Below are positions 17,930 to 53,227 of a DNA stretch of 64,000 bases, piece after piece. The notes beneath the pieces were generated by a model. The model had not been told where the DNA came from and made no database searches. It was given only the letters and a program-made list of their open reading frames with translations. Source of the DNA: Dehalococcoidia bacterium (lineage in GTDB: Bacteria; Chloroflexota; Dehalococcoidia; DSTF01; WHTK01); NCBI GenBank assembly GCA_009377745.1, contig WHTK01000003.1, forward strand, positions 2,568 to 66,567, given 5' to 3'. A program made the position numbers and the translations under genes. Position 1 is the stretch's first letter; each line of letters begins with the position of its first letter.

Positions 17930-19378
17930 TCAGCCAACGGTGCCGTTGGCTTCCTGTCCCTGAGACTTGAAGTCGTCCCAGGTGCGCATACCGCGCCACT
18001 CCCAGCGTCGCGCCGCGCTATCGACGCCGCGGTAGATGTTGTGGTCGAAGCGGTTGTTGCCGCCCCACATCATCTCGGGTTGGAAGTCAGCGGCCGCGCC
18101 GCTCACGCCCTCACCAGTGAGGTAAGTAATCGTGTTGTGGTGGACGTGGTTGTTCTGGGTAAGGTGCGGTCCGAACTTGCCGTTACCCCGGTTCTGCTGG
18201 ATCAAGACGATGCCATCGCCGTTGCCGACCTCTACCGTGTTCTGGTATATCTCCACGTTGCTTGAGCCGGCGATCGTAATCTGGCCGCCCCAGAGCCAGG
18301 CGCTGAACCCGTAGCCGTTGCCCTTCACGACATTGTTGCGGATGACGGCGGCGTAGCTGATCTCGTGGAATATGCCCATCCGCTCGTTGTTGATGACCGT
18401 GTTGCCTTCGTAGAGGGTGTTGATGTTGTCAATGTCCGTCCAGAGACCGGGCCCTTTGTTGTCGTGGACGAAGTTGCCACGCACGACCAGACCATCGGTC
18501 AGGACAAACTTTGTGCCGCCCGCTTCCCAGCCAGCGACGACGTTGCGGGTGTTGTTAAAGGCGATCTCATTGTTCTCAATGAGGATGCCGGAGCCTTCGC
18601 CGCCGGTCAGGCCAATCTGCCCGTTGTGGTGGATGTTGTTTGAGACGACCTGCATCCCGGGAGCGAGCCTGATGCCGCCGCCGTAGTTGTTGCGGATCTC
18701 GTTGCCTTCGATGCGCCAGCCGGAGCTCAGGGCGCCGTTGGGCGCCGCCCTGCCGTGGATCGCACCTTGCTGCACCGGGTTCATATACCGCTCGACCACG
18801 AGCCCGCGGATCGTGACATCGCGAGCGCTGCCGTGGAAGGCGTAAAGGCTAACATTCTCGCCATCGAGAATTGCCCCCGGCTCGCCGATGAAGCTCTGGC
18901 CAGCCTTGGGGACAACCGACTGGCGGATGTGGACGCCGGCCCTGATGATGAACGTCGCTCCCTCCGGGTTCGCCGACACCGCCGCCTGGATGTTATCGCC
19001 AGGGTTGATTACTAGCTCGCTGCGTGCCTGCGCGGTGGTTGCCGGTGGGATCGTAGATGGTGGGGGTGTCGCGGACGGTCGCGCCGGAGGCCGTGGTGTC
19101 GCGGTGGGGCCGGGTGTTGCCGCTTGAGCCGACGGTGTGACGCTAGGCGCGACCGGCGGCTCGTCCAGCTGAGGTGTCCAGACCGGCAAAACGAAGGTGG
19201 GCGCGGAAGCAATTTCGTCGCGCAGCTCGTCCGGTGGGACGTCGGCGCCATTTGGCATCATGAAGATGATGGCCAGGACTACGAGAGCTGTACCACCGAT
19301 GGGCAGGAGGAGGCGCCGGATCCGCCCGTGAGCCATCCAACGCCAACACGAGCCAGGCAAGCTAAGAAGGTGCTTCAT
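17930..19378 (-). CDS. membrane-anchored right-handed parallel beta-helix protein (pectate-lyase-fold, PbH1 repeats)
   Basis: N-terminal TM helix, Pro-rich linker, then NPGDNIQAAVSANPEGATFIIRAGVH and NNIHHNGQIG/NNEIAFNN repeats. Paralog of the C-terminal half of the 26066-28096 protein. Confidence 0.6.
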   Translation of the reverse strand: MKHLLSLPGSCWRWMAHGRIRRLLLPIGGTALVVLAIIFMMPNGADVPPDELRDEIASAPTFVLPVWTPQLDEPPVAPSVTPSAQAATPGPTATPRPPARPSATPPPSTIPPATTAQARSELVINPGDNIQAAVSANPEGATFIIRAGVHIRQSVVPKAGQSFIGEPGAILDGENVSLYAFHGSARDVTIRGLVVERYMNPVQQGAIHGRAAPNGALSSGWRIEGNEIRNNYGGGIRLAPGMQVVSNNIHHNGQIGLTGGEGSGILIENNEIAFNNTRNVVAGWEAGGTKFVLTDGLVVRGNFVHDNKGPGLWTDIDNINTLYEGNTVINNERMGIFHEISYAAVIRNNVVKGNGYGFSAWLWGGQITIAGSSNVEIYQNTVEVGNGDGIVLIQQNRGNGKFGPHLTQNNHVHHNTITYLTGEGVSGAAADFQPEMMWGGNNRFDHNIYRGVDSAARRWEWRGMRTWDDFKSQGQEANGTVG

Positions 19379-19509
19379 GCAAGGACTTAAATATGATACC
19401 GGTCAAACCCGCGGGAAACGCGGTTCTGGTGACGATAGGCCGCGTTTGTAATGTCTCGCTAACGATTCCAGGACGACGCCGCCCCGCGCAGCCGTTACAC
19501 TAAGAGGCC

Positions 19510-20841
19510 ATGGGCGCAGTTGGTCAGCTGATCGCCAACCTCGACGTTGAGGACACGGGGCGTGCCCTTCATCAGCAAATCCGAGACCTCTACCCGCTCT
19601 GTCGCAGCATCACGGGCGAAGGCCTGCGCGAGACGCTGCGCTGGATCCAGCGGTCGATACCGCTCGAAGTCCGTGAGGTAGCGACGGGCACCCAGGTCCT
19701 CGATTGGACGGTGCCGCGCGAGTGGAGCATACGAGACGCATATATAGCGGATGCCGCCGGTAACCGCGTCGTCGATTTCAAGCGCCACAACCTCCACGTC
19801 GTCAACTACAGCGCCCCAATATCCGCGCGTATGAGCCTGGACGAGCTACGCCCCCATCTCTACACGCTACCGGACCGGCCCGGCTGGATCCCCTATCGCA
19901 CTTCTTACTACGACGAATCCTGGGGGTTCTGTCTGAGCCACAACCAACTCCTCGCCCTGCCCGACGGCGAATACGACGTCTGCATCGACTCCACTCTGGC
20001 CGACGGCCATCTTTCCTACGGCGAATACGTCATCGCGGGTGAGAGCGCGGAGGAGATCCTGGTCTCGACGCACGTCTGTCACCCGTCGCTTGCCAACGAC
20101 AACCTCTCCGGCACAGTCGTTGCCACTCGGCTGGCGGAGCTGCTGTCGCGAGATCGGCATCGATACACGTTCCGCTTTCTGTTCATCCCGGGGACGATCG
20201 GTTCGATAACCTGGCTGGCTCTCAACAAGCCGCTGCTGGGCAACATCAGGCACGGCCTGGTCCTGGCCGGCGCGGGCGATGCGGGACCGCTGAGCTACAA
20301 ACGCAGCCGCCGCGGAAACGCCGGGATTGACCGCGCCGTGGAGCATGTCCTCAGGCAGCGAGGTAACGAATACCTGATCCGCGACTTCGAGCCGTACGGC
20401 TACGATGAGCGTCAGTATTGCTCCCCCGGCTTCAACCTGCCCGTAGGTAACGTTTCGCGGACCCCGTTTGGCCAGTACCCCGAATACCACACCTCGGCGG
20501 ACGACCCAGACTTCGTCAAGGCCGACGCCCTGGCCGATTCGCTCGCCTTCTGCTTGGAGATACTCCACGTACTGGAGAGCAACGGTCGCCACTTCAACCT
20601 GATGCCGGAAGGGGAGCCGCAGCTCGGCCGGCGCGGGCTCTACGGCCCGATAGGCGGCGCGACCGAGGCCCGCACCTTCCAGATGGCAATGCTCTGGGCC
20701 CTGAATCTCTCCGACGGGTCGCACTCGCTGCTCGATATCGCGGAGCGCGCAGGCATGCCCTTCGGCGTGATCTATGACGCTGCCGAGGCACTCACAGAGC
20801 ATGGATTGCTGAAGCCGTTGCCGCCTGATCAGGATGCCTGA
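19510..20841 (+). CDS. DUF4910 / aminopeptidase-like (M28-fold, COG4310-type) polysaccharide-locus protein
   Basis: QQIRDLYPLCRSITGEGLRETL...VCHPSLANDNLSG matches the conserved DUF4910 pattern seen beside O-antigen/EPS genes. Confidence 0.55.
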   Translation: MGAVGQLIANLDVEDTGRALHQQIRDLYPLCRSITGEGLRETLRWIQRSIPLEVREVATGTQVLDWTVPREWSIRDAYIADAAGNRVVDFKRHNLHVVNYSAPISARMSLDELRPHLYTLPDRPGWIPYRTSYYDESWGFCLSHNQLLALPDGEYDVCIDSTLADGHLSYGEYVIAGESAEEILVSTHVCHPSLANDNLSGTVVATRLAELLSRDRHRYTFRFLFIPGTIGSITWLALNKPLLGNIRHGLVLAGAGDAGPLSYKRSRRGNAGIDRAVEHVLRQRGNEYLIRDFEPYGYDERQYCSPGFNLPVGNVSRTPFGQYPEYHTSADDPDFVKADALADSLAFCLEILHVLESNGRHFNLMPEGEPQLGRRGLYGPIGGATEARTFQMAMLWALNLSDGSHSLLDIAERAGMPFGVIYDAAEALTEHGLLKPLPPDQDA

Positions 20842-21656
20842 TGGGGCCGGGACGTCTCGAGGGCGAGGTCGCAATCATAACGGGAGGTGGGCGTGGCTTC
20901 GGCAAGGCGATTGCCGAGCGGTTTGCGACCGAGGGTGCGGCAGTAGCCATCACGCAGCGCTCCAGTGACCAGCTGGCGCAGACCGCCGCTGCCATAATCG
21001 CCAGCGGTGGCGAAGCCCTGGCGGTTGCTGGTGACGTGACCGACGTGGCGCGTGTTGAGGCTGTCATCGAGGAAGCAGAAAGCCGGTTCGGCCGCGTCAG
21101 CCTGCTGGTGAACGCCGCGGGTGTGGCCGGGCCCTTTGGCCCCTTGTGGGAAGTCGCTCCGGACGACTGGTGGCGCACGCAGGAGATCCATGTCCGGGGC
21201 ACATTCCTGTTCGCCGGCGCGGTCATGCGACGTATGGTGCGCGGAGGTGGCGGCCGGATAATCAGCCTCGTGAGTAACGCCGGGACGCGGGTAAGTACCA
21301 ACGACTCCGGTTACAGTCTGGCCAAGGCAAGCCAGATCCGGCTCATGGAGCTGGCGGCCCAGGAGGGTCGGCCGCATGGCGTAGTGACGTTCGCCGTGCA
21401 CCCGGGCACTGTCGCCACCGAGCTGACTGATTTGATCATTTCCTCGGGGGAGGCACAACAATGGCTGCCGAACCTCGTCGCGCACCTCGACCGGGTCCGG
21501 GAATCGTCCGACGCCGATGCAGGGCTCGCCCGCTGTGCCGCGATGTGTGTCGAGCTTGCTTCCGGGAACTACGATGCCCTGTCCGGGCGCTATCTCGAAG
21601 CGGGCTGGGACCTCGATGCGCTGGCGAAGGAAGCGAAGGGCTCTTCGGGTGCCTGA
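20841..21656 (+). CDS. short-chain dehydrogenase/reductase (SDR family)
   Basis: AIITGGGRGFGKAIA Rossmann motif; YSLAK active-site Tyr/Lys. 1-nt overlap with the upstream gene. Confidence 0.8.
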   Translation: MGPGRLEGEVAIITGGGRGFGKAIAERFATEGAAVAITQRSSDQLAQTAAAIIASGGEALAVAGDVTDVARVEAVIEEAESRFGRVSLLVNAAGVAGPFGPLWEVAPDDWWRTQEIHVRGTFLFAGAVMRRMVRGGGGRIISLVSNAGTRVSTNDSGYSLAKASQIRLMELAAQEGRPHGVVTFAVHPGTVATELTDLIISSGEAQQWLPNLVAHLDRVRESSDADAGLARCAAMCVELASGNYDALSGRYLEAGWDLDALAKEAKGSSGA

Positions 21657-21745
21657 GAGAGCGCAGGCCGGGCAGGTGACAGCTAAGAGCTGAGTTATGC
21701 CACCCCGGGGCTACGCGTCACCACCTTGTGGAGACTACGCCCGTG

Positions 21746-23680
21746 TCACTCCCGCGGTGCGCCGCTAAACACGATCTCGATCTCGCGGTCAATGCGCAGG
21801 TCGGTTTGGAGGCTCGCGCCCGAAGCCGGGTTGCCGTCGAGCGAGATCGAGGTTAGCCGGACGCCCTTGTCGAAGACGGCGTGGACGTCGAGCGGGACGG
21901 CGTCCGTGCCGGCCTGCTTCTGCACATACAGGTTGTAGTGATAGAGGCCGTCTTCGCCCTGCTGTGCGACGCCCGGCGTCTCGTAGAGGAACTGGACGCT
22001 CGCCGTTGCGCCCGGCAGGACCGGGAAGAAACGCCCGAAGACGCGTCTCCCGAGTTCGAGGTCGACCTGCTCCGGCCCGACGCTGCGGCCCTGGAGGCGC
22101 ACATCAAGCAGCCGCGCCTGCTCATGGACGTAGAGACGCAGATAGCAGCCGTAGACGCCGTCCAGCATCAGCGTCTGGACAAGCCGTGGATCGCGGCCGA
22201 TCCGCCACTCAGGAAGCGGGTTCATGATCGTGTAGGTAAGCAGAGAGCGGACGCTGCCGTCTGAGAAGAGCTGCAGGTCGAGCCGGGCGCGGGTCTGGAG
22301 GATCAGGTTTAGCTTTGTGCTGTTCACGCTCGAATCGGCGATTAGGAGGGCGTCGCCATCGGTCTTGGTAAGGGCGCCATCGAAGCTGTAGCCGCGGGCG
22401 AGCGACTGGAGATTGGCGTCATTGAAGTTGAGCTGCAAATGGCGTTCGCGGCCCATCCTGTCGAGCAGGCTCAGCAGGTCCACCCATTGGTCCTTGGGTG
22501 ACGTAAAGATAAGCGTCAAGACAGCGCGCGCCAGATGGGAGAGGAAGGCCTTGCGGGGTGTCCCCGGCACGTAGTCCTCATCCCGCGTCTGCTCCAGGGT
22601 GACCTCCTCCACGTTCTCCGCCGTGACGGTCACGCCGTAGTCTGGCACCGAGACGGGGCCGAGCAGCTCCAGGAGCGCCCGCACAAACTTGAGGTCGATA
22701 GCGATGATGCCATCCGTGGGCGGGGCGCCTCCCTTGGCTACAAAGCCGGCGGCTAGACGGGCGGTGGTTGGGAAGTCCGGGTACCAGCCTGCCTCGCCGA
22801 GGCCCCAGGAGTAGTCGTACTTGAGGTAGTTCTTGAGGGGCGCGGGCGGCTCGATGTACTCGTGGGTCTGGCTCTGCCAGCGGTCGAAGAGGGTGCCGAA
22901 ATACTCCAGGTCCATCGAGACCAGGCGGCCGCCATCGAAAGTTACAATGCCGTAGCTGGAGATTAGGCCGCCGGACGGGAACAGCTCCGTGTTGTTCTGG
23001 GGCAATACCAGATAGCGCCTGGGCCCAGCTTGACCGAGCAGCTCGGGCAGAAGCCCGATGGCGCGATTATAGCCATCGACGAGCGCCTCCAGTCTGGCGA
23101 GGGCGGTATCAAGGTCTGTCGTGGCGCGGTCGAGCGGACCGTAGAGGCCTCCCGGCACCTGCCGGCGAATCGACTGCAGCCTCTGCAACCCCGCCTCGAC
23201 TTCTGCCATGGCGGGTTCCTGGCCCTTCAGGAAGCCGATCGCTTCTTCGATGGAGGTGCGGCCCGGGTCGCGCTCGTAGCGGGCGAAGGCCAGAGCCACG
23301 TCTGTCGCCTGCACGCCGGTCCTGGCGGACTCCTCCGCTGCCGCGACGAGCAACTTCAAGCCATCGACCTGATCTCCGGCCACGGGCAACAGGGACCCAA
23401 GCGTGATTAGCGGATCGGTGCGGACGAAGGCGCGGGCGGCGCCGAGCCGTTCAGCGGCGCGGACGAGGCGCTCGCGCTTTACCAGGATGCCGTCCTCGGA
23501 GTCCTCCAGCTCTGTGATGTCCAGCTCGTCCCTTATCGAGAGCAGGATGTCCTTGCTTTCCGAGACGTCCCGATAAAAGCCGTACGCCCTGTAAGCCTCG
23601 ATCGCCAGCAGGACGAGCGCGAGCAGGATGAGGACGAACGCGACGTGGCTTTTGAGGAGACGCGGTTTTGGGTTCAGCAC
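21746..23680 (-). CDS. DUF4012-like large extracytoplasmic protein with N-terminal TM anchor
   Basis: 644 aa; one N-terminal TM helix (VAFVLILLALVLLAI). Architecture as in actinobacterial DUF4012 cell-envelope proteins; assignment from memory only. Confidence 0.45.
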   Translation of the reverse strand: MLNPKPRLLKSHVAFVLILLALVLLAIEAYRAYGFYRDVSESKDILLSIRDELDITELEDSEDGILVKRERLVRAAERLGAARAFVRTDPLITLGSLLPVAGDQVDGLKLLVAAAEESARTGVQATDVALAFARYERDPGRTSIEEAIGFLKGQEPAMAEVEAGLQRLQSIRRQVPGGLYGPLDRATTDLDTALARLEALVDGYNRAIGLLPELLGQAGPRRYLVLPQNNTELFPSGGLISSYGIVTFDGGRLVSMDLEYFGTLFDRWQSQTHEYIEPPAPLKNYLKYDYSWGLGEAGWYPDFPTTARLAAGFVAKGGAPPTDGIIAIDLKFVRALLELLGPVSVPDYGVTVTAENVEEVTLEQTRDEDYVPGTPRKAFLSHLARAVLTLIFTSPKDQWVDLLSLLDRMGRERHLQLNFNDANLQSLARGYSFDGALTKTDGDALLIADSSVNSTKLNLILQTRARLDLQLFSDGSVRSLLTYTIMNPLPEWRIGRDPRLVQTLMLDGVYGCYLRLYVHEQARLLDVRLQGRSVGPEQVDLELGRRVFGRFFPVLPGATASVQFLYETPGVAQQGEDGLYHYNLYVQKQAGTDAVPLDVHAVFDKGVRLTSISLDGNPASGASLQTDLRIDREIEIVFSGAPRE

Positions 23681-23714
23681 GGGCTACGGCCGCGCGCCGA
23701 TAGCGCATCGAGTG

Positions 23715-24365
23715 TCACAGTTGCTTTGCGAGATCCGGCTGAGCCTGCAACAGCAGCGCGCCGAGGCACTGGAGCAGGAATTCGCTGAGCAGTCCTTGCT
23801 CCGCCATAGCGCGAAGCTCGGGCAGAGTGGCGGCGTAGTAGCCGCCGGCGATCTCGGGTTGCCCCGTTAGCCGCACGGTCTGGATGCGATTCCTTTTCTC
23901 GAAGAACATGCCGGGGTCCTGAGCCACGCTGAAGGAGTCCTCACCTACAAGCGCCGCGTAGGGGATGTCTTCGCCGCGCAATCGTTCGACACCGGCCTGG
24001 ACGGTGGTGGTGACCAAGATGCGGCCGGGAGTGTCGCTACCCGGCTCCTCTTTGGCCTGGACGAGAAACTTCAGCTCGTGCTCGGCGTCCTGCCAGTAGA
24101 CGAGGGCGATCTCAGCGTGTGGTTTGGCGATGGGATGGATGAGGAAGAGAGACGGCCAGGACCGGCGAGGGCTCTTTGCCTGGACAAGGATGCCCTCGTG
24201 ACCGGCAGCGGGGTTCCAGAAGTGGGCGCTCTCCTGCCGCCAGCCGGTGCCATCGAGAGACTCCTGGCGTCTCAAGGACTCGATGCCCTTCTCGCGCCGT
24301 TGGGTCGCCAGCCACTGTTGCATCCCTGTCACCGCGCCGGACCTCCGGATTCCATGGACTGCCAT
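23715..24365 (-). CDS. hypothetical protein
   Basis: 216-aa ORF with coding-like composition; no recognisable motif. Confidence 0.3.
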   Translation of the reverse strand: MAVHGIRRSGAVTGMQQWLATQRREKGIESLRRQESLDGTGWRQESAHFWNPAAGHEGILVQAKSPRRSWPSLFLIHPIAKPHAEIALVYWQDAEHELKFLVQAKEEPGSDTPGRILVTTTVQAGVERLRGEDIPYAALVGEDSFSVAQDPGMFFEKRNRIQTVRLTGQPEIAGGYYAATLPELRAMAEQGLLSEFLLQCLGALLLQAQPDLAKQL

Positions 24366-24493
24366 GCCAGGCGTTTGTAATGCCGGTAACGTACTCGCAA
24401 GGCAGGATTGCCTGTATTATGAGCGATACAGCCTCGCCGTAACGTCTCTCAGGCAGGATTGCCGGGTAATATGAGAGAAACGGCTTCGAGCGC

Positions 24494-24982
24494 GTGGGAA
24501 AGGACTCCTTTGTGCGTCTCGCCTTTGTCTTGACCTTCGCCCTGATCAGCCTGAGCCTGAGCTATATTCCACAGGCGAACGCCCAGTACGGGCCTTCTCG
24601 CGGCCGCCTGGTCTGTGAGCTGAACGGCCAGGTTACGGGCAATAGTGTCCAGATAACTACGACGCTTCAGGACACGGACGGCGATGGGGTCTCCGGCCAG
24701 AACATCAACTTCACGGTGCTGGGCGGCTCCGGCGGCCAACTCGACCCGCCGTCCGACGTCACGGGCAATAACGGCGAGGCAAGCGTCACGCTGTTCACGG
24801 ATGGGCCCGGGCAACTCATTGTGCGTGCGACGACCAACAACCAGGTCGCCTGTGATATGACCGTCCTCACCCAGGAGGTCGCGGGCGTGGTCGAGGTTGC
24901 CCCGGTAGCCGAAGTTGCAGAGGTCTCCAACATATTCACGCCGCCGATCGTCGGCGATGCGGGTCTCAAGCCCTCCCAATAG
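24494..24982 (+). CDS. secreted Ig-like (Big/invasin-type) domain protein
   Basis: Signal peptide AFVLTFALISLSLSYIPQANA; ITTTLQDTDGDGVSGQNINFTV..GNNGEASVTLFTDGPG is typical of bacterial Ig-like domains. Confidence 0.45.
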   Translation: MGKDSFVRLAFVLTFALISLSLSYIPQANAQYGPSRGRLVCELNGQVTGNSVQITTTLQDTDGDGVSGQNINFTVLGGSGGQLDPPSDVTGNNGEASVTLFTDGPGQLIVRATTNNQVACDMTVLTQEVAGVVEVAPVAEVAEVSNIFTPPIVGDAGLKPSQ

Positions 24983-25059
24983 CCGAGCTGATTCAGCGAC
25001 AGCCGGAGCGTAAAGATCGTGGATCGGCGCGCTGCTGAGGTGCGCCCGCGGCTAAGATT

Positions 25060-25983
25060 CTATTTCGTCTGGAGATAGAGTGACGCTGGGAAGTGCCCCG
25101 GCGAATCGCGAAAGACGCGCCTGCCTTCCATCAAGCCGTCCCTATGGGGAGCCGGCTGGTACTCGGGGAACACCTCTTTCAGAGCCTCGGGCCGTTCGTA
25201 GTGAAGCTGGCTCATGCAGAAGAGGATGTCGACCTTCTCGTTGAAGGCCAGGTAGGCGCGGACCAGCGCCGGCTCGCTCCAGTGGTAGAGCGTTTGCAGG
25301 GTGTCCGGTTGGTAATCGAAAGGGAAGGCGATGTCATGGATGTGAATCGTTACCCCGGGTGGTAGGCGCGGCAGAACCTCCAGATAGAGGAAGTTGACGT
25401 CGCTGCCCGGCTTGACGATGTGCGAGGAGTCGATGAAGAGGAAATCGCCGGGACCGAGGCTGATGAAGGGGGCGAGGCCTACCTCCTGGACGGGGCTGGC
25501 GATCAACTCCACGGAGTCGAGGGCCCGCAGGGCGGCCGAAGGGTAGGGCTCAATCGAGGTGATCTTGCCGGCCCCGTTCCGCTCCAGCGCTTTGTGCATG
25601 CAGAAGGTTGAGACGCCGCTCCCCACCTCCACAATCCTGCCCGGCTTCAGGGCGCGGATCACGCCGTGCAGCGCCTGAGCCTCGATGTAGCCATATCCGG
25701 GGCCGAAGTGATGCTCGACTGCCTCTCGGAAGGCGGTGTTGCCGGCGTACTCGTCGCGGAATGGGGCGCAAAGGCTGGCCATCGCCTGCACCTGAGCGTC
25801 GAGATCGATGCGAAGGCCCGGCATTTCGGACTTTTGCGCCCAGACGGAGCGGGTCCGCTCCAGATCAGGCAGCTTAACGACGGGCGAGTAATAGTTGGAG
25901 GGTACGATATCGACGCCGATACGCTGAGCCAGCTTGTGAGCGCCGATAATCGCATGCTTCAGACGATCGGAGACGGATGGCAT
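25060..25983 (-). CDS. class I SAM-dependent methyltransferase (macrocin-O-MT / cephalosporin-hydroxylase-like fold)
   Basis: GRIVEVGSGVSTFCM glycine-rich SAM motif; LFIDSSH; in the glycan locus. Confidence 0.55.
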   Translation of the reverse strand: MPSVSDRLKHAIIGAHKLAQRIGVDIVPSNYYSPVVKLPDLERTRSVWAQKSEMPGLRIDLDAQVQAMASLCAPFRDEYAGNTAFREAVEHHFGPGYGYIEAQALHGVIRALKPGRIVEVGSGVSTFCMHKALERNGAGKITSIEPYPSAALRALDSVELIASPVQEVGLAPFISLGPGDFLFIDSSHIVKPGSDVNFLYLEVLPRLPPGVTIHIHDIAFPFDYQPDTLQTLYHWSEPALVRAYLAFNEKVDILFCMSQLHYERPEALKEVFPEYQPAPHRDGLMEGRRVFRDSPGHFPASLYLQTK

Positions 25984-26065
25984 GCCCGCGGATTATACCA
26001 GACCGGGTTCGAGTGTAATCCCCGGACGTGACCGTCCCTGGGTCACGTCCGGGGCGGGCCTCGGT

Positions 26066-28096
26066 TTAGTGCAGCGCAGCGCCGGCGATTTCTTGCCCCT
26101 GATTACGGAAGCCATCCCAATTGCGCATGCCCTTCCATTCCCAGTAGATGCGGGAGGGATCGGCCACCTTGTAGGTGTTGTGGTCGAAGCGGTTGCCGCC
26201 GTTGAACATGGCGTCCGCCTGGTAGTCCGCGGCCGCGCCACTCATGCCGCGCGTCCCCAGATACACGATCTGGTTGTGATGGACGTAGTTGCCGGTGGTC
26301 AGGTGCGGGCCGTGGGCGCCGGAGCCGCGGTTCTGCTGCACCAGACCGATGCCGTTACCGTAGCTGGCCGACACTTCGACCTTGTTGTTGTAGATCTCAA
26401 CATTGCGCGACCCGGCGACCAGGATCTGGGCGCCCCAGAGCCAGGCAGACTGATCTGACCCGTTCAGCCGCGACACGTTGTTCTTGATCACGGCGTCATA
26501 GCTGATCTCGTGGAAGATGCCTATGCCTTCATTGCTGAAGACCGTATTGTCGTCATACGTGGTGTGGATGTTGTCGATGTCCGTCCAGAGGCCCGGACCT
26601 TTGTTGTGATGGACGCTGTTGCCGCGGACGACGAGCCTTGTGGTGAGGACGAACTTTGTGCCACCGGCCTCCCAGCCGGAGTTGAAGCCGGCGGTGTTGT
26701 TGTAAGCGATCTCATTGCCTTCGATGAGGACGTCCGCGCCCTCACCGGCGATGCCGATCTGGCCGTTGTGGTGGATGTTGTTGTTGATGGCCTTCATCTG
26801 GGAGCCGGTGCGCAGGCCGGCGCCGTGATTGAAGCGGATATCGTTGTCCTGCACGACCCAGCCACTGCTTAGAGCGCCGTTTGTCCCGTCCTTGGCCTGA
26901 ATAGCGCCATGCTGAGCCGGGTTCGCGTATTTTTCGATGACGAGGCCACGGATCGTGACGTTCTTTGCCTTACCGACGAAGGCGTGGCGCGTGACGCTCG
27001 CCTCCACCTTGTGGCCCGTTGGGTTATCGGCCATGTAGATCCTGTCCTTGGCGTAATCGAAGTACCATTCTCCGGCGGAAAGGCCGCTCAGGCTCGTTAC
27101 CTGCCACAGCGGTTGATCATCGATGAAAAGGCCCTCCGGGTACATACAACCCGTGTAGCCGGAGACACAGGCGCCGTGCGTCTGGCCCTGCTGCGTCTGG
27201 CCGGTTGCCACCCAGTAGCTGCCCGACCTTGTAAACGAGACCAGCTTGGCGCCACTGAGGACCGCGCCGGACTCGCCCACAAAGCTCTGTCCGTCCTTGG
27301 GTGTCACCTGCTGCAGCCGATGGACGCCGGGCTTGAGGACAAATGTGGCGCCTGTAGGATTCGCGTTGACGGCCGACTGAATGTTAGCGCCAGGCTGAAT
27401 GACCACGCCGGACGTTGATGGCGGGGCGGGCGACGGAGATGGGGTGGGTGTTGGGCTGGGGCTCGGCTTGGGAGCCGGGCTGGGCGGCGGAGTGGGGGTC
27501 GGGCTTGGCTTAGGGGCGGGAGGTTGGACCGGTGGCGTCGTACCACCCACTCTGGTGCCATCGTCGATCGTCGAGAAATCGGCCACCCAGTAGTAGTCGT
27601 AGCGTGAAGGGCCGAAGTAGGCGCGCGCGATGCCGATCTGGCGGTAAGACTTGCTCAGCATTGCGCCCCTGGCGCTGCTGGAGCTCCCCCAGCTGTTAAA
27701 GACCTGCGTAGCGCTGCTCCAGCTTGTGCTTGCCCCGATAATCTCGGCGGTGAGCGCATTGGATGGCAGGCCGCAGTCCTGCATCCGTGTCCGCGAAGAT
27801 CGCTTCAGTGAGTCCTTATGGGAGAAGTAGTTCCTGCGGGACATATCGTTGGCCAGCCAGGATGCCGAGCGGTGGAGGTTGGCGGAGATGGTGAGCGCCG
27901 GGGCGCCAGTCTGTGCCCGATAGCTGTTGATGAGGCTGAGCAGCTCCTCCTCCTCGTCGTCGAAATTGAGGTATACATCGCAGTTGTTGAGGGCGTAGGC
28001 AGTATCAAAGCCGCCGCGACTAACGGTGCTTGAAGCGAGCATGATGATTGCGAGGCTGAGGGCACCGAGGGCACGGGGGAGCGCAGATCTGGGCAT
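26066..28096 (-). CDS. secreted CAP (SCP/PR-1) domain protein fused via Pro-rich linker to a right-handed beta-helix domain
   Basis: Signal peptide; CAP motifs LINSYRAQ...HRSASWLANDMS...YFSHKD...YWVADFS. PSPTPTPPPSPAPKPSP linker. The beta-helix half is highly similar to the 17930-19378 protein, including the C-terminal WEW.GMR.WD.F..QGQE. Confidence 0.65.
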   Translation of the reverse strand: MPRSALPRALGALSLAIIMLASSTVSRGGFDTAYALNNCDVYLNFDDEEEELLSLINSYRAQTGAPALTISANLHRSASWLANDMSRRNYFSHKDSLKRSSRTRMQDCGLPSNALTAEIIGASTSWSSATQVFNSWGSSSSARGAMLSKSYRQIGIARAYFGPSRYDYYWVADFSTIDDGTRVGGTTPPVQPPAPKPSPTPTPPPSPAPKPSPSPTPTPSPSPAPPSTSGVVIQPGANIQSAVNANPTGATFVLKPGVHRLQQVTPKDGQSFVGESGAVLSGAKLVSFTRSGSYWVATGQTQQGQTHGACVSGYTGCMYPEGLFIDDQPLWQVTSLSGLSAGEWYFDYAKDRIYMADNPTGHKVEASVTRHAFVGKAKNVTIRGLVIEKYANPAQHGAIQAKDGTNGALSSGWVVQDNDIRFNHGAGLRTGSQMKAINNNIHHNGQIGIAGEGADVLIEGNEIAYNNTAGFNSGWEAGGTKFVLTTRLVVRGNSVHHNKGPGLWTDIDNIHTTYDDNTVFSNEGIGIFHEISYDAVIKNNVSRLNGSDQSAWLWGAQILVAGSRNVEIYNNKVEVSASYGNGIGLVQQNRGSGAHGPHLTTGNYVHHNQIVYLGTRGMSGAAADYQADAMFNGGNRFDHNTYKVADPSRIYWEWKGMRNWDGFRNQGQEIAGAALH

Positions 28097-28400: not shown

Positions 28401-28443
28401 TCTTTGCAATATGAAGAGCGACAGCGCTATAGCGCTGTCGCTC
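28401..28443 (-). terminator. candidate intrinsic terminator downstream of the GME gene
   Basis: Perfect 12-bp palindrome GAGCGACAGCGC-TATA-GCGCTGTCGCTC followed on the minus strand by TTCATATTGC, about 25 nt after the GME stop. Confidence 0.35.
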
Positions 28444-28468
28444 TTCAAGCCTGCGAAGCGCCTCGGCG

Positions 28469-29455
28469 CTAGGTGTAAGACATGACTTTCTCTGTGCTCA
28501 ACACCTGCTGCTCGATCCACTCATAGGTGCGGCCCAACCCCTCCTCAAGCGAGATCTTAGGTTCCCAATTGAGGACCTCGCGCAGCAGCGTGTTGTCGGA
28601 GTTGCGGCCGCGGACCCCCTCCGGCCCGACGACGTGCTTCTTGGCGACTTCCAGGCCGGCGATTCCGCCGATGATGTCCGCGAGCTCGTTGATACTGATC
28701 ATCCGGTCCTGACCGAGATTGATCGGTTCTTGCCAGGCGGATTGCATCAGCAGCACGAGGCCCGTAATGCAGTCGTCGATGTAGCAGAAGGACCGCGTCT
28801 GCTCGCCATCGCCCCAGATCTCGATTTCGGAGTTGGCGGCTCGCTTTGCCACGGCGATCTTGCGGCAAAGGGCGGCCGGGGCCTTCTCGCGTCCACCATC
28901 CCAGGTGCCCAAGGGGCCGAAGATGTTGTGGAACCGGACGATGCGGGTGTCCATGCCGTAGTCCTGGCGGTAGTGCATACAGAGCCGCTCCGTGACCAGC
29001 TTCTCCCAGCCGTAGGCATCCTGCGGCTGGGCAGGGTAGGCGTCCGCTTCCTTGAGGGGCGCAACGTCTGTGCCTTCCTGGAGGTACTCCGGGTAAATAC
29101 AGGCTGACGACGTGTAGAGCAGCTTGCCCACGCCCTTCTGACGGGCGGCCTCCAGCGTGTGAAGATTGATCAAGGCGTTGTTGTGGAGAATTTCGGCATG
29201 GTGGGCGGAGATGAAGCCCATGCCGCCCATATCGGCCGCTAGCGCCCACACCTCGTCCATTCCGTCTGCCGCCGTCAGGTTGTTCTCCCAGACACGCAGG
29301 TCAAGCTGGAGGAACTCGTCGGCGCGGGTGTCTTGAAACTGCGGCAGCTTGATGTCCACACCGCGGACGAAGTAGCCGTCGTCTTTGAGACGGTTGACGA
29401 GATGGTGGCCGATGAAGCCACCGGCGCCCGTTACAAGTGCACGTCTTGCGGTCAT
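28469..29455 (-). CDS. GDP-mannose 3,5-epimerase-like NAD-dependent epimerase (GME family)
   Basis: Collinear motifs with plant/bacterial GME: GAGGFIGHH, LAADMGGMGFI, SSACIYPE, QDAYGWEKL, RFHNIFGP.GTW.GGREKAPAA.CRK, GPEGVRGRNSDN. Confidence 0.75.
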   Translation of the reverse strand: MTARRALVTGAGGFIGHHLVNRLKDDGYFVRGVDIKLPQFQDTRADEFLQLDLRVWENNLTAADGMDEVWALAADMGGMGFISAHHAEILHNNALINLHTLEAARQKGVGKLLYTSSACIYPEYLQEGTDVAPLKEADAYPAQPQDAYGWEKLVTERLCMHYRQDYGMDTRIVRFHNIFGPLGTWDGGREKAPAALCRKIAVAKRAANSEIEIWGDGEQTRSFCYIDDCITGLVLLMQSAWQEPINLGQDRMISINELADIIGGIAGLEVAKKHVVGPEGVRGRNSDNTLLREVLNWEPKISLEEGLGRTYEWIEQQVLSTEKVMSYT

Positions 29456-29503
29456 ATGGATTAGTCTCCTCGAAATTCTGTTTTGTTGGTTGCGGGGGTT
29501 TAT

Positions 29504-30163
29504 TTAGTAGGCGCCGTCACCTGTGAGGACAGCGGGGATGGTCTTGAGAAGAATCCTGGCGTCCATGAGGAATGAACGCTTCTCCGCGTACTCGAGATCG
29601 AGGCGGAGCATTTCTTCAAAGGAGAGGTTGCTGCGCCCGCTGACCTGCCACAGACCGGTAAGCCCGGGCCGGACGCTGGCGCGAAGCTCCATCTGTTCCT
29701 TCAGGCCTTCGATCTCCCAGCCGAGGAGAGGGCGCGGCCCAACGAGACTCATATCGCCCCGGACTACATTCATTAGTTGCGGCAGCTCATCCAGGCTGTA
29801 GCGGCGCAGGATGCGGCCGCTGCGCGTAATGCGCGGGTCGACGTTGCGCTTCTGGAGCGGGCCAAAGCCGGCCTCACGAAGCACCTCCGCCGGGATCTTG
29901 TCACTGCCTTCGCGCATGGTCCGGAACTTCAGCATCGTGAAGGGAGACATGTCTCTGCCGGGCCGCTGCTGGCGGAAGAGGATTGTGCCGGGCGAGTCAA
30001 GGCGGATAAATAGCGCGATAGCGGCCATGATCGGCGACAGGGCGGCGAGCAGGAAGCCGGCCCCGCAGATGTCCACGATCCTTTTCACGGCATCCTGCAG
30101 CGGCTTTGGACGGGTGGGTTGACGCAGGAGAATGATCTCTTCCATCGCTGTCTCGCTACTCAT
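29504..30163 (-). CDS. polyprenyl-phosphate sugar-1-phosphate transferase (bacterial sugar transferase family; priming glycosyltransferase)
   Basis: KRIVDI..A...L..SP.......IRLDSPG...FRQQR.G......MLKFRTM....D...........D.R.T..G..LR..SLDELPQL.NV..GDMSLVGPRP is the Bac_transf C-terminal catalytic core. One TM helix. Confidence 0.8.
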   Translation of the reverse strand: MSSETAMEEIILLRQPTRPKPLQDAVKRIVDICGAGFLLAALSPIMAAIALFIRLDSPGTILFRQQRPGRDMSPFTMLKFRTMREGSDKIPAEVLREAGFGPLQKRNVDPRITRSGRILRRYSLDELPQLMNVVRGDMSLVGPRPLLGWEIEGLKEQMELRASVRPGLTGLWQVSGRSNLSFEEMLRLDLEYAEKRSFLMDARILLKTIPAVLTGDGAY

Positions 30164-31085
30164 CTGAGAAAGCGCCTATCGTCTCTTCGAGACCGCTGCG
30201 AAGGCTTCTATGTGGTTCCCAGCCGAAACGCTCCCGCACGCGTGTGATGTCAGGACAGCGCCGGTATGGGTCGTCCACGGCTGCCGGTAGGAAGTCGTAC
30301 TTCGCCTCGACACCGAGCAGCGACGCGACGGTCTCCGCCAGCTCGATCATAGTAACCTCTTCCGGGTTGCCGAGGTTGAACACCTCCCCGTTAGCGCTGG
30401 AGTCCTGAGCGACCTTCAATAGACCATCGACAAGGTCCGAGACGAAGCAGAAGGAGCGCGTCTGCTGGCCCGTCCCCTGAATCGGGAACGGCTTGCCGCT
30501 CAACCCGGCGCCGATGAATGCCGGGATCACGCGGCCATCCAGCGGGTCCATGCGCGGGCCGTAGGTATTGAAAATCCGCACGATGCCGACGTTGGCCCCG
30601 CGCGTCCGCATCGCCATGGCGAGCGCCTCGCCGAAGCGCTTTCCCTCGTCATAGCAGGATCTCTCGCCGATTGGATTGACGTTGCCCCAGTACGACTCGG
30701 TTTGAGGGTGCTCCAGGGGATCGCCGTAGACCTCTGAGGTGGAGGCGAAGAGGAGCCGCGCATCGGCCTCGATGGCGCGTTCCAGCAGCCGTAATGTCCC
30801 CAATGAGTTGGCGAGGAGGGTTTCGACCGGCTTGGCCCTGTACTGAACGGGGCTGGCAGGCGACGCCAGGTGGAGCACGAAATCGGCCTCGAAGGGCGGC
30901 GGGGCCGTGACGTCTGCCTGGACGAATCGGAAGTTAGGCCGGCCGGTCAGGTGGGCAACGTTGCGCTCGCGGCCGGTCAGGAGGTTGTCAAGGCAAAGGA
31001 CCTCGTGCCCCTGCGCCACCAGCGTCGTGCAAACGTGGCTGCCGATGAAGCCGGCGCCACCGGCGACAACGAAACGCGTTGTCAC
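30156..31085 (-). CDS. UDP-glucuronate decarboxylase (UDP-xylose synthase)
   Basis: GGAGFIGSH, DNLLTGR..N, ASPASP, STSEVYGDP..HPQ.E.YWG.VNPIG.R.CYDEGKR, RIFNTYGPRM...DGRV match UXS. 4-nt overlap with ugd. Confidence 0.85.
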   Translation of the reverse strand: MTTRFVVAGGAGFIGSHVCTTLVAQGHEVLCLDNLLTGRERNVAHLTGRPNFRFVQADVTAPPPFEADFVLHLASPASPVQYRAKPVETLLANSLGTLRLLERAIEADARLLFASTSEVYGDPLEHPQTESYWGNVNPIGERSCYDEGKRFGEALAMAMRTRGANVGIVRIFNTYGPRMDPLDGRVIPAFIGAGLSGKPFPIQGTGQQTRSFCFVSDLVDGLLKVAQDSSANGEVFNLGNPEEVTMIELAETVASLLGVEAKYDFLPAAVDDPYRRCPDITRVRERFGWEPHRSLRSGLEETIGAFSDE

Positions 31086-32443
31086 GGCTGGCTGACGCTC
31101 GCGTGGAACTGGCCTTCGTGAGTGATCGGCCGGCCCATACCCTGATAGATGCCGCCGACGGCCTCGACATGCTCCCGCTTGAGAATGTTGCGGCCGTCAT
31201 AAACATAGCGTCCCGGCATGCTGGCGAGTACTTCGGCGAAGTCGACCTGAGTGAACTCGGGCCAATCCGTCAGGACAGCAAGGGCATCGGCGCCCTTGAC
31301 CGCATCAATGGCATCTTCGGAGAGCAGGACAGCGTCCTCCAGGTCACCGTCGGTGACCTGTGATGGGTCGTAGGCCTGAATCCGCGCGCCCTCGTTCTGG
31401 AGCAGCCGGATCACATCGAGCGCCGGTGACTCGCGCAGGTCCTCGCTGCCGCCCTTGAACGTGATGCCCCAAACGGCGATAGTCCGGCCCTCCAGGGTGC
31501 CCAACGCCTGGCGCAGGCACTGGACGGCGTGCCGGCGCTGGCCAAGGTTTATTTCCTGGACGGAGGAGAGCAAGCGCATTGAGATGCCGGCCGAATCGCC
31601 CGTGTAACAGAGCGCGGCGACGTCCTTCGGGAGGCAGCTGCCGCCATAGCCGATGCCGGGCTTGAAGAAGTGCTGGCCAATCCTGGGGTCCATGCCGGCC
31701 CCCGTCACGATGGGGTCGACGTCCAGATTGAGCGCCTCGCAGAGACGGGCGATCTCGTTGACGAACGAGACGCGCGTCGCCAGATAAGCGTTCGATACGT
31801 ACTTGATCATCTCGGCGGAGCGCAGGTCCGTCATGACCAGGGGAGCATCGATGCCCTCGTAGAGCTGGGCGACGGCCTGGGCGTTCACCTCGGAGTCGGC
31901 CCCAATCACGATCCGATCAGGGTGGAAGAAGTCGTAGACCGCGCTGCCTTCGCGGAGAAACTCGGGGTTGGCGACTATGCCGGAGTGGCCGTTGTCCTGG
32001 GTGATGAAGGTGCTGAGGATGGCATCGATCCTCTCCCCCGTACCGATGGGAGAGGTGCTCTTATTGATGATGATGGGCTGGCGGCCCCTCGTCGCAAGCT
32101 CTTCGCCCAGGGCGGCCGCGGCCATGCGGACGTAGCGAATGTCCGGCGCGCCGGTGGCAGTGGGCGGCGTGTTCACGCAAAGGAAGACGAACTTTGCCTC
32201 GCGCAGCGCGTCCGTGTAGGAAGTTGTGAAGGTCAGCCTGCCTTCAGCAAGCATCTGGGAGGTGAGTTCGGGAAGGCCGCGTTCGAGGAAGGGGACCGAG
32301 CCACGCGATAGCTGTTGGACGAGGTCAGGATTCTTATCGATACCGACGACCTGATGGCCAAGGCTCGCCATACCGGCGGCCGTGACCAGACCAACGTGGC
32401 CGCAGCCTACAACGGCAATGGAGGATGGAGGGCAAGCCTGCAT
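31082..32443 (-). CDS. ugd: UDP-glucose 6-dehydrogenase
   Basis: IAVVGCGHVGL N-terminal NAD motif; GGSCLPKD catalytic Cys motif. The start is placed at the second ATG, which has a GAGGAA RBS. Confidence 0.85.
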   Translation of the reverse strand: MQACPPSSIAVVGCGHVGLVTAAGMASLGHQVVGIDKNPDLVQQLSRGSVPFLERGLPELTSQMLAEGRLTFTTSYTDALREAKFVFLCVNTPPTATGAPDIRYVRMAAAALGEELATRGRQPIIINKSTSPIGTGERIDAILSTFITQDNGHSGIVANPEFLREGSAVYDFFHPDRIVIGADSEVNAQAVAQLYEGIDAPLVMTDLRSAEMIKYVSNAYLATRVSFVNEIARLCEALNLDVDPIVTGAGMDPRIGQHFFKPGIGYGGSCLPKDVAALCYTGDSAGISMRLLSSVQEINLGQRRHAVQCLRQALGTLEGRTIAVWGITFKGGSEDLRESPALDVIRLLQNEGARIQAYDPSQVTDGDLEDAVLLSEDAIDAVKGADALAVLTDWPEFTQVDFAEVLASMPGRYVYDGRNILKREHVEAVGGIYQGMGRPITHEGQFHASVSQP

Positions 32444-32784
32444 TTCCTCACGGTTCATGGATAGGATCAAGAACAGTGAACCGCGCAGGCAGAGTGGGGG
32501 AATAACCTACTTGAACAGCAAAGCTTCATCGGGGACCGCCTCCTTGCATCCGGACTGCCGATAGAAACGGACTTAACCCGGCTCCCAGCGCTTATAGTTC
32601 GTCAACTTTATCGATGTTCATCTGTCAAAATTGATGCAAGCCCTGTTTTGGCATTGCGAAGGTGTAACGGAACCGGCCGCAGGCGTGCCGGGACTCTCTA
32701 CGGGCGACGAGAATGTAACTTGTGACGGACACGGGCCTACCGGCTGGGCATGCCCTTGCGGGGCCCAACCGGCCCAGGGCATAT

Positions 32785-32840
32785 TTGACCTCCCAGGTAA
32801 CGATCCGTACAGTCAGAACGATCCTACAGTCAAGGAGAGA
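32785..32840 (+). promoter_or_regulatory. candidate promoter plus tandem 16-nt direct repeat immediately upstream of the wzz-like gene
   Basis: TTGACC-17-TACAGT, then AACGATCCGTACAGTCA / AACGATCC-TACAGTCA direct repeat, then AAGGAGAG RBS. Confidence 0.3.
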
Positions 32841-32842
32841 CG

Positions 32843-34270
32843 ATGGAGTTCAGAGATTACGTCGGCTTTCTTAGCCGCCGCTGGCTGCTTTTGCTGCTCA
32901 TCCCCGCGACCGCGCTCATCGTGACGTATCTGTGGTCGCGACAGCTGACGCCGATATATGAGTCCACGGCAACGGTGCTGCTGGTAAACCAGGTCCAACC
33001 GGATGCGGTGACGTCCCAGGTCAATGACCTGCTAATCGACGAACGGCTCATTCAGACTTACGTTGAGCTGATCGAGCGCCGTCCCGTCCTCGCTGCTGTG
33101 GTGCAGGAGCTTTCTTTGCCCATGACAGCAGAGGAGCTGGCAGAGCAAATATCGGTGGCGAATGACGTGCAAACGCAGATCATCCGCATTACTGCGCATG
33201 ACAGTAACGCCTCCCTGGCGGCGGACATGGCCAACACGACGACGGCTGTATTCATCGAGCAAACGGAGACTGACATTGGCCGGCCCGGGACCGTGCGCGT
33301 TGCCGAGCCGGCGGTGGCCGCAAGGACGCCCGTCGAGCCGAATCTGCCCTTGAATCTGATCCTTGCCGGCTTCGTCAGTTTGATTGTCAGTATCGGCCTG
33401 GGGCTTGTCCTGAACTACCTCGATAGCACAGCCAGAAGCCCGGAAGACGTCCAGGCCGCGTCCGGTCTACCTCTACTCGGCATGGTTTATCGCGTCCGCC
33501 TGCGGCCGCGGCAGGGGATGGAGGACTTCGGATTATGGGCGCTCGCGGAGGACTATCGCGGCCTGCGCGCGAAGCTCGATTCGGCGCGGCAGCACTCGGG
33601 CCTCAAGTCCTTACTGATCGTGAGCGAGAATGCAGGTGAGGGGCGCTCGATTACAGCGGCGAACCTGGCGTTGTCCCTCGCCCAGGCTGGCGAGAATGTG
33701 GTCCTGGTGGACGCTGATTTGAGACGGCCTCACCTGCACGAGCTCTTCCAGGTACCAAACGCGGCCGGGCTCGCCGCCGTACTCAATGGACTCACCGGCT
33801 TCACGGAAGCGCTGGAGACCACACGCTTTGAGAACCTGATGTTGTTGCCGGCGGGCACGCCGCAGCCGAACCAGGCGGAGAAGCTCTCCTCCAGAATGAT
33901 GGCGGAGCTGATAGAGCACCTGACGGGCTCGGGCGACATTATCATCTTTGATTCGCCGCCGATGTCCGCCTTCGCCGACGCGAGCATCCTCGCCGCAAAG
34001 GTGGACGCTTCAATTCTGGTCGTCGAATCGCGCCGGACCAGGGCGAGCGAGATCCGCCAGTCGGTCGAGAGATTGAGCGGGGCCAAGGGTGGCATTATCG
34101 GCGTTGTGGTCAACAAGGTACGCGGCCGTCGCGACGGGAGGCCCTATCAGCATTGGCGCCAGAGCAGCCGCGGCACGGACGCCCAGACGCCGGCGCGGGC
34201 GCCGGCCACGCGCCGTTTTCGAAGGAATGAATCACGCGCCGTTGGCTCCCCCCAGGAAGAGAAACTCTGA
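32843..34270 (+). CDS. polysaccharide co-polymerase (Wzz-like) fused to CpsD/BY-kinase-like P-loop ATPase domain; Walker A Lys replaced by Arg
   Basis: N-terminal TM helix plus periplasmic Wzz-like region, then a second TM helix. Walker A-like VSENAGEGRSI, Walker A' VVLVDADLRRP, Walker B DIIIFDSPP. No C-terminal Tyr cluster. Confidence 0.7.
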   Translation: MEFRDYVGFLSRRWLLLLLIPATALIVTYLWSRQLTPIYESTATVLLVNQVQPDAVTSQVNDLLIDERLIQTYVELIERRPVLAAVVQELSLPMTAEELAEQISVANDVQTQIIRITAHDSNASLAADMANTTTAVFIEQTETDIGRPGTVRVAEPAVAARTPVEPNLPLNLILAGFVSLIVSIGLGLVLNYLDSTARSPEDVQAASGLPLLGMVYRVRLRPRQGMEDFGLWALAEDYRGLRAKLDSARQHSGLKSLLIVSENAGEGRSITAANLALSLAQAGENVVLVDADLRRPHLHELFQVPNAAGLAAVLNGLTGFTEALETTRFENLMLLPAGTPQPNQAEKLSSRMMAELIEHLTGSGDIIIFDSPPMSAFADASILAAKVDASILVVESRRTRASEIRQSVERLSGAKGGIIGVVVNKVRGRRDGRPYQHWRQSSRGTDAQTPARAPATRRFRRNESRAVGSPQEEKL

Positions 34271-52929: not shown

Positions 52930-52939
52930 AAGCTGACGG

Positions 52940-53227
52940 CTACCGCTGAGGATCAGGTTTGTGACCAGCCCACGCCCCCTCTATGGCCTCGTCACGATCT
53001 GGATCATCACGCAGGTCACGGATACCAGCGTCAATCTCCTCACGCGTGGCGCCGTAAACGCCCACCAGACTACCAGCATGGTAGCTAACCCAATCCCGCG
53101 GACGAGCCCGCAGGACCAGACGCCCACCCTCACGAGTGATAGCCAGACGGTCCCCGGCGGTCAGACCCAGCTCACGCAGGAGGTGAGCCGGCAGCGTGAT
53201 TTGGTTTTTTGTGCTTATGGTAGTCAT
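52940..53227 (-). CDS. vapB: AbrB/MazE/SpoVT-type antitoxin (VapB-like)
   Basis: MTTISTKNQITLPAHLLRELGLTAGDRLAI swapped-hairpin motif. The end overlaps the vapC N-terminus in a different frame. Confidence 0.55.
   Translation of the reverse strand: MTTISTKNQITLPAHLLRELGLTAGDRLAITREGGRLVLRARPRDWVSYHAGSLVGVYGATREEIDAGIRDLRDDPDRDEAIEGAWAGHKPDPQR

Follow-up and report, generated by a model that had tools for sequence, protein, structure and literature searches.

The DNA analyzed here is a stretch of 64,000 nucleotides from contig WHTK01000003.1 (positions 2,568 to 66,567) of an assembly assigned to an uncultured Dehalococcoidia bacterium of the Chloroflexota (GCA_009377745.1), referred to below as the window. 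On the minus strand, at 28469-32458, it carries four consecutive co-directional open reading frames (ORFs). These were assigned with high confidence, by sequence comparison, to a UDP-glucose 6-dehydrogenase (ugd, UGD), a UDP-glucuronate decarboxylase/UDP-xylose synthase (uxs, UXS), a small monotopic polyprenyl-phosphate phosphoglycosyl transferase (PGT) and an orthologue of GDP-mannose 3,5-epimerase (GME or GM35E), in this order. Considered together with the adjoining genes, the operon probably forms the part of a surface or extracellular polysaccharide pathway that supplies precursors and primes synthesis, and the glycan is predicted to contain xylose and/or glucuronate in addition to an L-hexose. 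A preliminary description of this DNA had recognized the same four genes, and all four ORFs were found where it had placed them.

Identity of the operon enzymes

The last gene of the operon (28469..29455), coding for a protein of 328 aa, is a GME orthologue by every available sequence criterion, and GME activity is predicted for its product. The epimerase matched Arabidopsis GME (2c59) with 369.7 bits (E = 1.4e-109); GDP-fucose synthase gave only 108 bits, and GalE and UXS at most ~105. In a MAFFT alignment it was 52% identical to the Arabidopsis enzyme (AtGME) over 309 aligned residues, and in the neighbor-joining (NJ) tree it fell in one clade with plant GME and the bacterial orthologues, apart from Fcl, Gmd, RfbB, GalE, UXS and the other short-chain dehydrogenase/reductase (SDR) paralogues of the related loci. 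The preliminary description had set, as a check on its GME call, whether the enzyme clusters with ordinary 4-epimerases; its grouping with plant GME upheld the call. Moreover, S117, C119, Y148, K152, K191 and R284 of the epimerase correspond to S143, C145, Y174, K178, K217 and R306 of AtGME, so that the Ser/Tyr/Lys triad, the acid-base pair formed by Cys145 and Lys217, and Arg306 are all preserved; the roles of these residues have been described for GME (PMC6678494). The NAD motif is present as GxxGxxG at G10/G13/G16. In the same columns, E. coli Fcl, a GDP-fucose synthase, presents a His at K217 and a Lys at R306. Two other identities, an ordinary UDP-sugar 4-epimerase and a GDP-fucose synthase, were rejected on account of the bit-score gap, the NJ tree and the presence of Lys in place of His at position 217. 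In NCBIfam, no GME model was among the matches of the epimerase, the best being GDP-fucose synthase with 140 bits for a cut-off of 500, and the NCBI protein with which it is 100% identical, from a metagenome-assembled genome labeled Dehalococcoidia bacterium, is named only as NAD-dependent epimerase/dehydratase.

The first gene, ugd (31082..32458), encodes a protein with three UDPG_MGDP_dh Pfam domains (176, 124 and 100 bits), a score of 434 bits against TIGR03026 (cut-off 189.8) and the catalytic-Cys motif GGSCLPKD. Its closest solved relatives were UDP-glucose dehydrogenases, with 311-324 bits (3vtf, 323.8; 4a7p, 316.5), compared with 194 bits for the GDP-mannose dehydrogenase AlgD (1mfz) and 177 bits for UDP-ManNAcA dehydrogenase, and it reached neither of the NCBIfam equivalog models TuaD and AglM. 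The possibility that this enzyme is a GDP-mannose dehydrogenase drawing on the pool of GME was discarded given the scores of the UDP-glucose dehydrogenases relative to AlgD.

The product of the second gene, uxs (30156..31085), aligned end to end with human UXS1 (4gll, 2b69) with 320 bits (E = 1e-94). The runner-up family scored 142 bits, UDP-apiose/xylose synthase 103, ArnA ~82 and the dTDP-glucose dehydratases at most ~93, and assignments as an ArnA-like enzyme or a UDP-apiose/xylose synthase were rejected for scores far under that of UXS1. The motifs ASTSEVYGDP, CYDEGKR and DDPYRRCPD aligned with the Thr/Glu, Tyr/Lys and Arg positions of UXS1. The STSE, Tyr-x3-Lys and C-terminal Arg motifs have catalytic roles in human UXS1.

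The third gene (29504..30163) encodes a PGT of 219 aa composed of the catalytic domain only, with a Bac_transf (PF02397) match of 211.5 bits over residues 27-213. Its translation displays a single N-terminal hydrophobic helix at about residue 28 with a Ser-Pro pair (LSPIM), an Asp-Glu dyad (SLDELPQL) and a PRP motif (GPRPLL). The Bac_transf domain alone, the Ser-Pro helix, the dyad and the PRP motif are those that define small monotopic PGTs (PMC10186338). The protein matched the catalytic domain of WbaP with 144 bits and PglC with 136 bits; with TIGR03025 it gave 273.9 bits, slightly short of the cut-off (295.55). The catalytic domain and the C-terminal ...DGAY resemble those of WbaP and WcaJ, which use UDP-Gal and UDP-Glc, and a diNAcBac-type GLLLP motif was not visible in the translation. 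The preliminary assignments of the dehydrogenase, the decarboxylase and the priming enzyme were thereby also borne out.

Organization and boundaries of the operon

The start of each operon gene was taken as the first start codon of its open frame. For ugd this is the ATG at 32458; the ATG at 32443, chosen in the preliminary description, is equally possible, and an in-frame TTG is found at 32470. The uxs gene starts at a GTG, and the sequence GTGA forms a 4-nt overlap with the ugd stop codon; similarly, the ATG of the PGT gene and the uxs stop codon share 8 nt (ATGAGTAG). Both overlaps had been reported before and are exact in the sequence. The PGT and GME genes are separated by 48 nt, with a GGAG ribosome-binding site 11 nt 5′ of the GME ATG. 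Considering this short gap and the lack of a hairpin within it, GME is likely co-transcribed with the three coupled genes.

About 20 nt past the GME stop codon, a hairpin with a perfect 16-bp stem and no strong U-tract is found at 28412..28447 of the same strand. The 74-nt stretch containing it presented a folding energy of -40.6 kcal/mol, compared with an average of -22.4 for shuffled sequences (z = -6.25). It was not called by a consensus terminator scan because its U-tract is weak, and it is the probable end of the transcription unit. On the other side of the operon, a region of ~385 bp (32459..32842) separates ugd from a divergently transcribed tyrosine-kinase gene and is presumed to hold the promoters of both. 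The lone sigma-70-like match in this region, on the plus strand at 32785-32813, was weak and no better than in shuffled sequence; the consensus scan for promoters and terminators returned nothing exceeding the shuffle expectation, and no Rfam family matched the region. The GC content of 28-34 kb (0.60-0.64) is mildly lower than that of the rest of the window (0.62-0.70), a difference too mild to inform on horizontal transfer.

Distribution and gene neighborhoods of bacterial GME

It had been stated in the preliminary description that bacterial GME homologues are rare. This did not stand: when species-representative genomes, one for each prokaryotic species, were scanned, at least 578 bacterial GME loci were confirmed, the best 80 of which encode enzymes 70-76% identical to that of the window, and come from metagenome-assembled genomes (MAGs) labeled as Acidobacteria, Chloroflexota, Gemmatimonadota, delta-proteobacteria, Binataceae, NC10 and Chthoniobacterales. 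In a protein search, the best 120 matches were all at least 71% identical, many of them designated GDP-D-mannose 3′,5′-epimerase by JGI. A bacterial enzyme, MfGM35E of Methylacidiphilum fumariolicum, was biochemically characterized in 2019, when 18 UniProt entries existed (PMC6678494). The supposed rarity is outdated and reflects annotation. It was also observed that GME is unusually conserved, with 70-78% identity between phyla as distant as Chloroflexota, Acidobacteria and delta-proteobacteria, and with 52% identity to the plant enzyme, which suggests that GME is either strongly constrained or often transferred horizontally between soil bacteria.

The neighborhoods of GME were surveyed in these best 80 loci, taking in as much as 10 kb on either side. 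A polysaccharide-type gene was found within 1.5 kb of GME in 64 of them, including a GT4-family glycosyltransferase (GT) in 26, a tyrosine kinase homologous to the divergent gene of the window in 21, a nucleoside diphosphate (NDP)-sugar dehydrogenase in 18 and a PGT in 15; the tyrosine kinase was the commonest immediate upstream neighbor. The PGT gene lies directly 5′ of GME, as in the window, in four further loci (L001, L039, L055 and L070). In one of these, a 4-kb metagenomic contig (L001), GME, PGT and UXS are 88%, 80% and 84% identical to those of the window, and the order UXS-PGT-GME followed by a beta-helix gene is common to both, this contig being the only one with that order among the matches listed. 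A UXS orthologue was found near GME in none of the 80 related loci.

A second set comprised 80 metagenomic loci carrying PGTs 45-57% identical to that of the window. In eight of these (L106, L109, L114, L121, L129, L132, L133 and L147), where the PGT catalytic domain is ~50% identical, the gene directly downstream of the PGT encodes a UXS orthologue (49-52% identical); GME was present in none of the 80. In two of the eight (L109 and L132), the PGT ORF is 469-479 aa long, and in L109 the PGT-UXS pair is located within an exosortase (EpsH)/DUF3485/PEP-CTERM locus. Since PGT-GME and PGT-UXS recur elsewhere as pairs, the operon is read as a lineage-specific shuffle of modules. Its sole unusual point is that a single, tightly coupled operon unites UXS, GME and a minimal PGT, a gene-order variant of one lineage.

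Other neighbors of GME were observed in the same survey. A WcaI-like GT4 directly adjoins GME in many genomes of delta-proteobacteria, NC10, Chloroflexota and Binataceae, and two such proteins scored 345 bits (L054) and 204 bits (L008) against the WcaI-family model (cut-off 276). Because the E. coli K-12 record annotates WcaI as a fucosyltransferase, these GT4s may be regarded as candidate L-galactosyl or L-gulosyl transferases, enzymes for which a need in glyco-engineering has been stated (PMC8787198). In addition, in L005, L046 and ~16 other loci, an NDP-sugar dehydrogenase 27-32% identical to the UGD of the window stands in operon order with GME. These dehydrogenases scored 328-356 bits against TIGR03026 and reached no equivalog model; their substrate could be a GDP-sugar.

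Assembly genes in the window

The gene transcribed divergently from the operon, which adjoins it upstream (32843..34270, plus strand) and of which the preliminary description made no mention, encodes a fused Wzz/GNVR polysaccharide co-polymerase and BY-type tyrosine autokinase. Pfam revealed Wzz, GNVR and ParA/CbiA/AAA_31 P-loop domains, and the Wzz/GNVR part has two transmembrane (TM)-like segments. The protein scored 162.6 bits against the TIGR01007 tyrosine autokinase model (cut-off 108.05), its N-terminal half scored 97.5 bits against the CpsC-type model TIGR01006, and E. coli Wzc matched it in tblastn at 1e-24.

No GT, Wzx, Wzy, ManB or ManC was recognized by Pfam in ~60 candidate ORFs spanning the 64 kb, nor by tblastn over the same length with ManB, ManC, Wzx, Wzy, GT2 and GT4 references from E. 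coli K-12, in agreement with the earlier statement that GDP-mannose pyrophosphorylase, Wzx, Wzy and GT genes are missing from the window. A hidden Wzx or Wzy was considered among the ORFs at 12-16.4 kb that matched no Pfam family and was rejected: judged by hydrophobicity, two of them are membrane proteins (open frames of 267 and 287 aa), but these are too small for a typical Wzx or Wzy and are members of a paralogous family that neighbors a contractile-injection-system cluster. From the same absence it had been concluded that either the assembly genes lie elsewhere or the pathway is non-canonical. The first alternative is the one retained for the GTs, Wzx and Wzy; the second was abandoned because ManC and ManB were found within 10 kb of GME in none of the 80 related loci, which makes the lack of a GDP-mannose pyrophosphorylase a normal condition and no sign of a non-canonical pathway.

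Proposed pathway and alternative explanations

In the proposed pathway, UGD would oxidize UDP-glucose to UDP-glucuronate, which the translationally coupled UXS would decarboxylate to UDP-xylose. The PGT, coupled in turn to UXS, would transfer a sugar-1-phosphate onto polyprenyl phosphate, generating the lipid-linked primer. Its donor would most likely be a common UDP-hexose, because the catalytic domain is similar to those of WbaP and WcaJ. GME would supply GDP-L-galactose as well as GDP-L-gulose. Since the divergent co-polymerase/tyrosine autokinase adjoins the operon, polymerization and length control would follow the Wzx/Wzy-type route, with the GTs, flippase and polymerase encoded outside the 64-kb window in a split locus.

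Against this proposal, the window lacks glycosyltransferases, a flippase, a polymerase and a GDP-mannose pyrophosphorylase, and the pathway cannot be reconstructed from it; of the components of a Wzx/Wzy-type system, the co-polymerase/BY-kinase is present and Wzx, Wzy and the GTs are missing from the locus, which is at most a partial module. In addition, the sugar donor of the PGT cannot be assigned from its sequence, because the scores against WbaP and PglC are nearly equal and that against TIGR03025 is below the cut-off.

The destination of the sugars could also be a different one. The same enzymes might serve S-layer protein glycosylation or a wall-bound secondary polymer of a monoderm bacterium, and not an exopolysaccharide (EPS) or capsule. 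Small PGTs of the size of PglC classically begin protein glycosylation, and PglC matched the PGT of the window with 136 bits; the genes at 17.9-28.1 kb are of the secreted beta-helix, Big_1, DUF4012 and methyltransferase kinds, not export machinery, and peptidoglycan-related proteins are encoded in the window. Nevertheless, this destination is rather unlikely, given that a chain-length determinant/BY-kinase such as the one adjoining the operon is a hallmark of Wzy-dependent capsule and EPS, that the BY-kinase is the commonest immediate upstream neighbor of GME in relatives, and that the window yielded neither an oligosaccharyltransferase nor an LCP ligase.

It is less likely still that the epimerase is a GME-like enzyme of shifted products or substrate, acting mainly toward GDP-L-gulose or GDP-altrose or on another NDP-hexose, in which case the prediction of L-galactose would be wrong. 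GM35E enzymes do give product mixtures of GDP-L-Gal, GDP-L-Gul and GDP-altrose (PMC6678494, PMC8787198), and the epimerase is just ~52% identical to characterized enzymes. However, all six catalytic or mechanistic residues of GME are preserved, the characterized bacterial GME is equally distant from AtGME and has the same activity (PMC6678494), and the identity of 70-88% among GME orthologues across phyla suggests one conserved function.

Finally, a PGT donor undescribed for the superfamily, either UDP-xylose (with transfer of xylose-1-phosphate) or GDP-L-galactose (with transfer of L-galactose-1-phosphate), would explain the position of the PGT gene wedged between uxs, to which it is translationally coupled, and GME, as well as the adjacency of PGT to UXS in eight of the 80 PGT loci and to GME in several GME loci, but it is highly improbable, as the donors listed for small monotopic PGTs are without exception derived from UDP-hexose or UDP-HexNAc and include neither UDP-Xyl nor a GDP sugar (PMC11626204), the catalytic domain including the C-terminal ...DGAY is like that of WbaP and WcaJ, and a PGT beside precursor genes is normal in polysaccharide loci. 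A literature search for PGTs using UDP-Xyl or GDP sugars, and for bacterial EPS with xylose and L-galactose, returned nothing relevant. If such a donor were used, the PGT-UXS and PGT-GME adjacencies of other phyla would mark new PGT specificities.

The precursor-supply and priming module of a polysaccharide pathway is, accordingly, the interpretation retained here, and the glycan with xylose plus an L-hexose that the preliminary description had predicted is a reasonable expectation. If it is correct, a poorly known, non-dehalogenating member of the Dehalococcoidia/Chloroflexota would produce a surface glycan with xylose and/or glucuronate and L-galactose or L-gulose, the latter two being uncommon in described bacterial polysaccharides. 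Furthermore, GME orthologues are widespread in soil and sediment phyla, embedded in EPS loci and often beside WcaI-family GTs.

Other features of the window

Downstream of the operon, a loose group of accessory genes of envelope or glycan type was observed at 17930-28096. The one closest to the operon, located 3′ of the hairpin on the minus strand (26066..28096), encodes a CAP/SCP and right-handed beta-helix protein (Pfam CAP, 51 bits; Beta_helix, 58 bits). A homologue 72% identical occupies the same position after GME in L001, and the gene is possibly associated with the operon, perhaps as a polysaccharide-active enzyme. Altogether, Pfam identified in this group two beta-helix proteins (the one with CAP included), Methyltransf_24, Big_1, DUF4012, an SDR and DUF4910/DUF2172/HTH_47, in addition to a weak NDP-hexose 2,3-dehydratase-like ORF. 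Several of these families are common in glycan loci. No NCBIfam model matched the genes of this group, and no glycosyltransferase was among them. A homologue of the DUF4910 protein, 59% identical, is found 8.5 kb from GME in L048.

The remainder of the window bears no relation to the operon. The first 11 kb of the window (1-11000, plus strand) contain a contractile injection system or phage-tail-like cluster, with Pvc16_N, a tail sheath, a T4 gp19-type tube, CIS_tube, a VgrG-like hub (Phage_GPD and Phage_base_V) and a Baseplate_J protein of 1035 aa. The presence of such a cluster beside housekeeping genes in a MAG labeled as Dehalococcoidia was unexpected. Three ORFs matching no Pfam family follow (12062-13021, plus; 14318-15181, minus; 15175-16356, plus) and present a similar N-terminal domain, SPFAITA..NSVRLD...TVTNASGRTLTGRA...PERxFP, succeeded by one or more TM-like segments; the ORFs of 12062-16356 are a paralogous family beside the injection-system cluster. 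Between them, at 13514-14317 (minus strand), a small polytopic membrane protein with ~8-9 TM-like segments is encoded.

A PG_binding_1 protein (11136-11990, plus strand) and a protein combining Amidase_2, SpoIID and two LysM domains (16398-17888, plus strand) were identified by Pfam and suggest that the organism has peptidoglycan. Cultivated Dehalococcoides are not known to possess it. The window also holds prs, secA and other housekeeping genes. A T-box leader (RF00230; 59304-59573, minus strand; 103 bits for a gathering score of 93) precedes the acetolactate synthase genes at 57183-58937 and 56605-57195, and leuA-like and leuCD-like genes belong to the same-strand run of branched-chain amino-acid genes. 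Within it, a PIN-domain gene recognized by Pfam (52504-52980, minus strand) is placed between the gene of the isopropylmalate-isomerase large subunit and a 2-isopropylmalate-synthase-like gene.

Comparison with known systems

The GME of the window resembles AtGME (2c59) as an extended SDR, sharing with it 52% of 309 residues, the catalytic triad, the Cys/Lys pair and Arg306, and it resembles MfGM35E in being bacterial and in its location among glycan-biosynthesis genes (PMC6678494). Unlike the plant enzyme, it has neither the N-terminal extension of ~25 residues nor the C-terminal extension of ~35 residues, so that the alignment covers AtGME 33-343 of 379, and its NAD motif is GxxGxxG, whereas that of AtGME is GxxGxxA. 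Its role would be in glycan synthesis, as opposed to ascorbate synthesis.

Similarly, the UXS of the window is comparable to human UXS1, with which it aligns over its full length at 320 bits while keeping the catalytic positions, and it has ugd as its partner, as is usual. Bacterial UXS enzymes are known from Sinorhizobium and Bacteroides. The window UXS differs from these in that its 3′ side is translationally coupled to a PGT gene and its operon is shared with GME.

At the level of the locus, the window has in common with the E. coli colanic acid cluster (wza-wzb-wzc...wcaJ) and the Gram-positive CpsC/CpsD-CpsE systems a priming PGT of the WbaP/WcaJ/CpsE type and a chain-length determinant with a tyrosine autokinase. 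A branch toward a GDP-mannose-derived L-sugar is represented by GME in the window and, analogously, by Gmd/Fcl in colanic acid. In contrast to complete Wzx/Wzy loci, the window carries no GTs, Wzx, Wzy, phosphatase or export protein; moreover, its PGT is the minimal form of 219 aa and its kinase a single fused CpsC-CpsD-like protein. Comparable arrangements are those of GME loci in MAGs labeled as Acidobacteria, Chloroflexota, Gemmatimonadota and delta-proteobacteria (for example L017, L039 and L054), where a BY-kinase, a PGT, a WcaI-family GT4 or an NDP-sugar dehydrogenase directly flanks GME. Every enzyme of the operon is a clear member of a characterized family, and current understanding is left unchanged; what sets the window apart is that the best 80 GME loci pair GME with GTs or with Gmd/Fcl and never with UXS, whereas here, as in L001, GME is paired with UXS.

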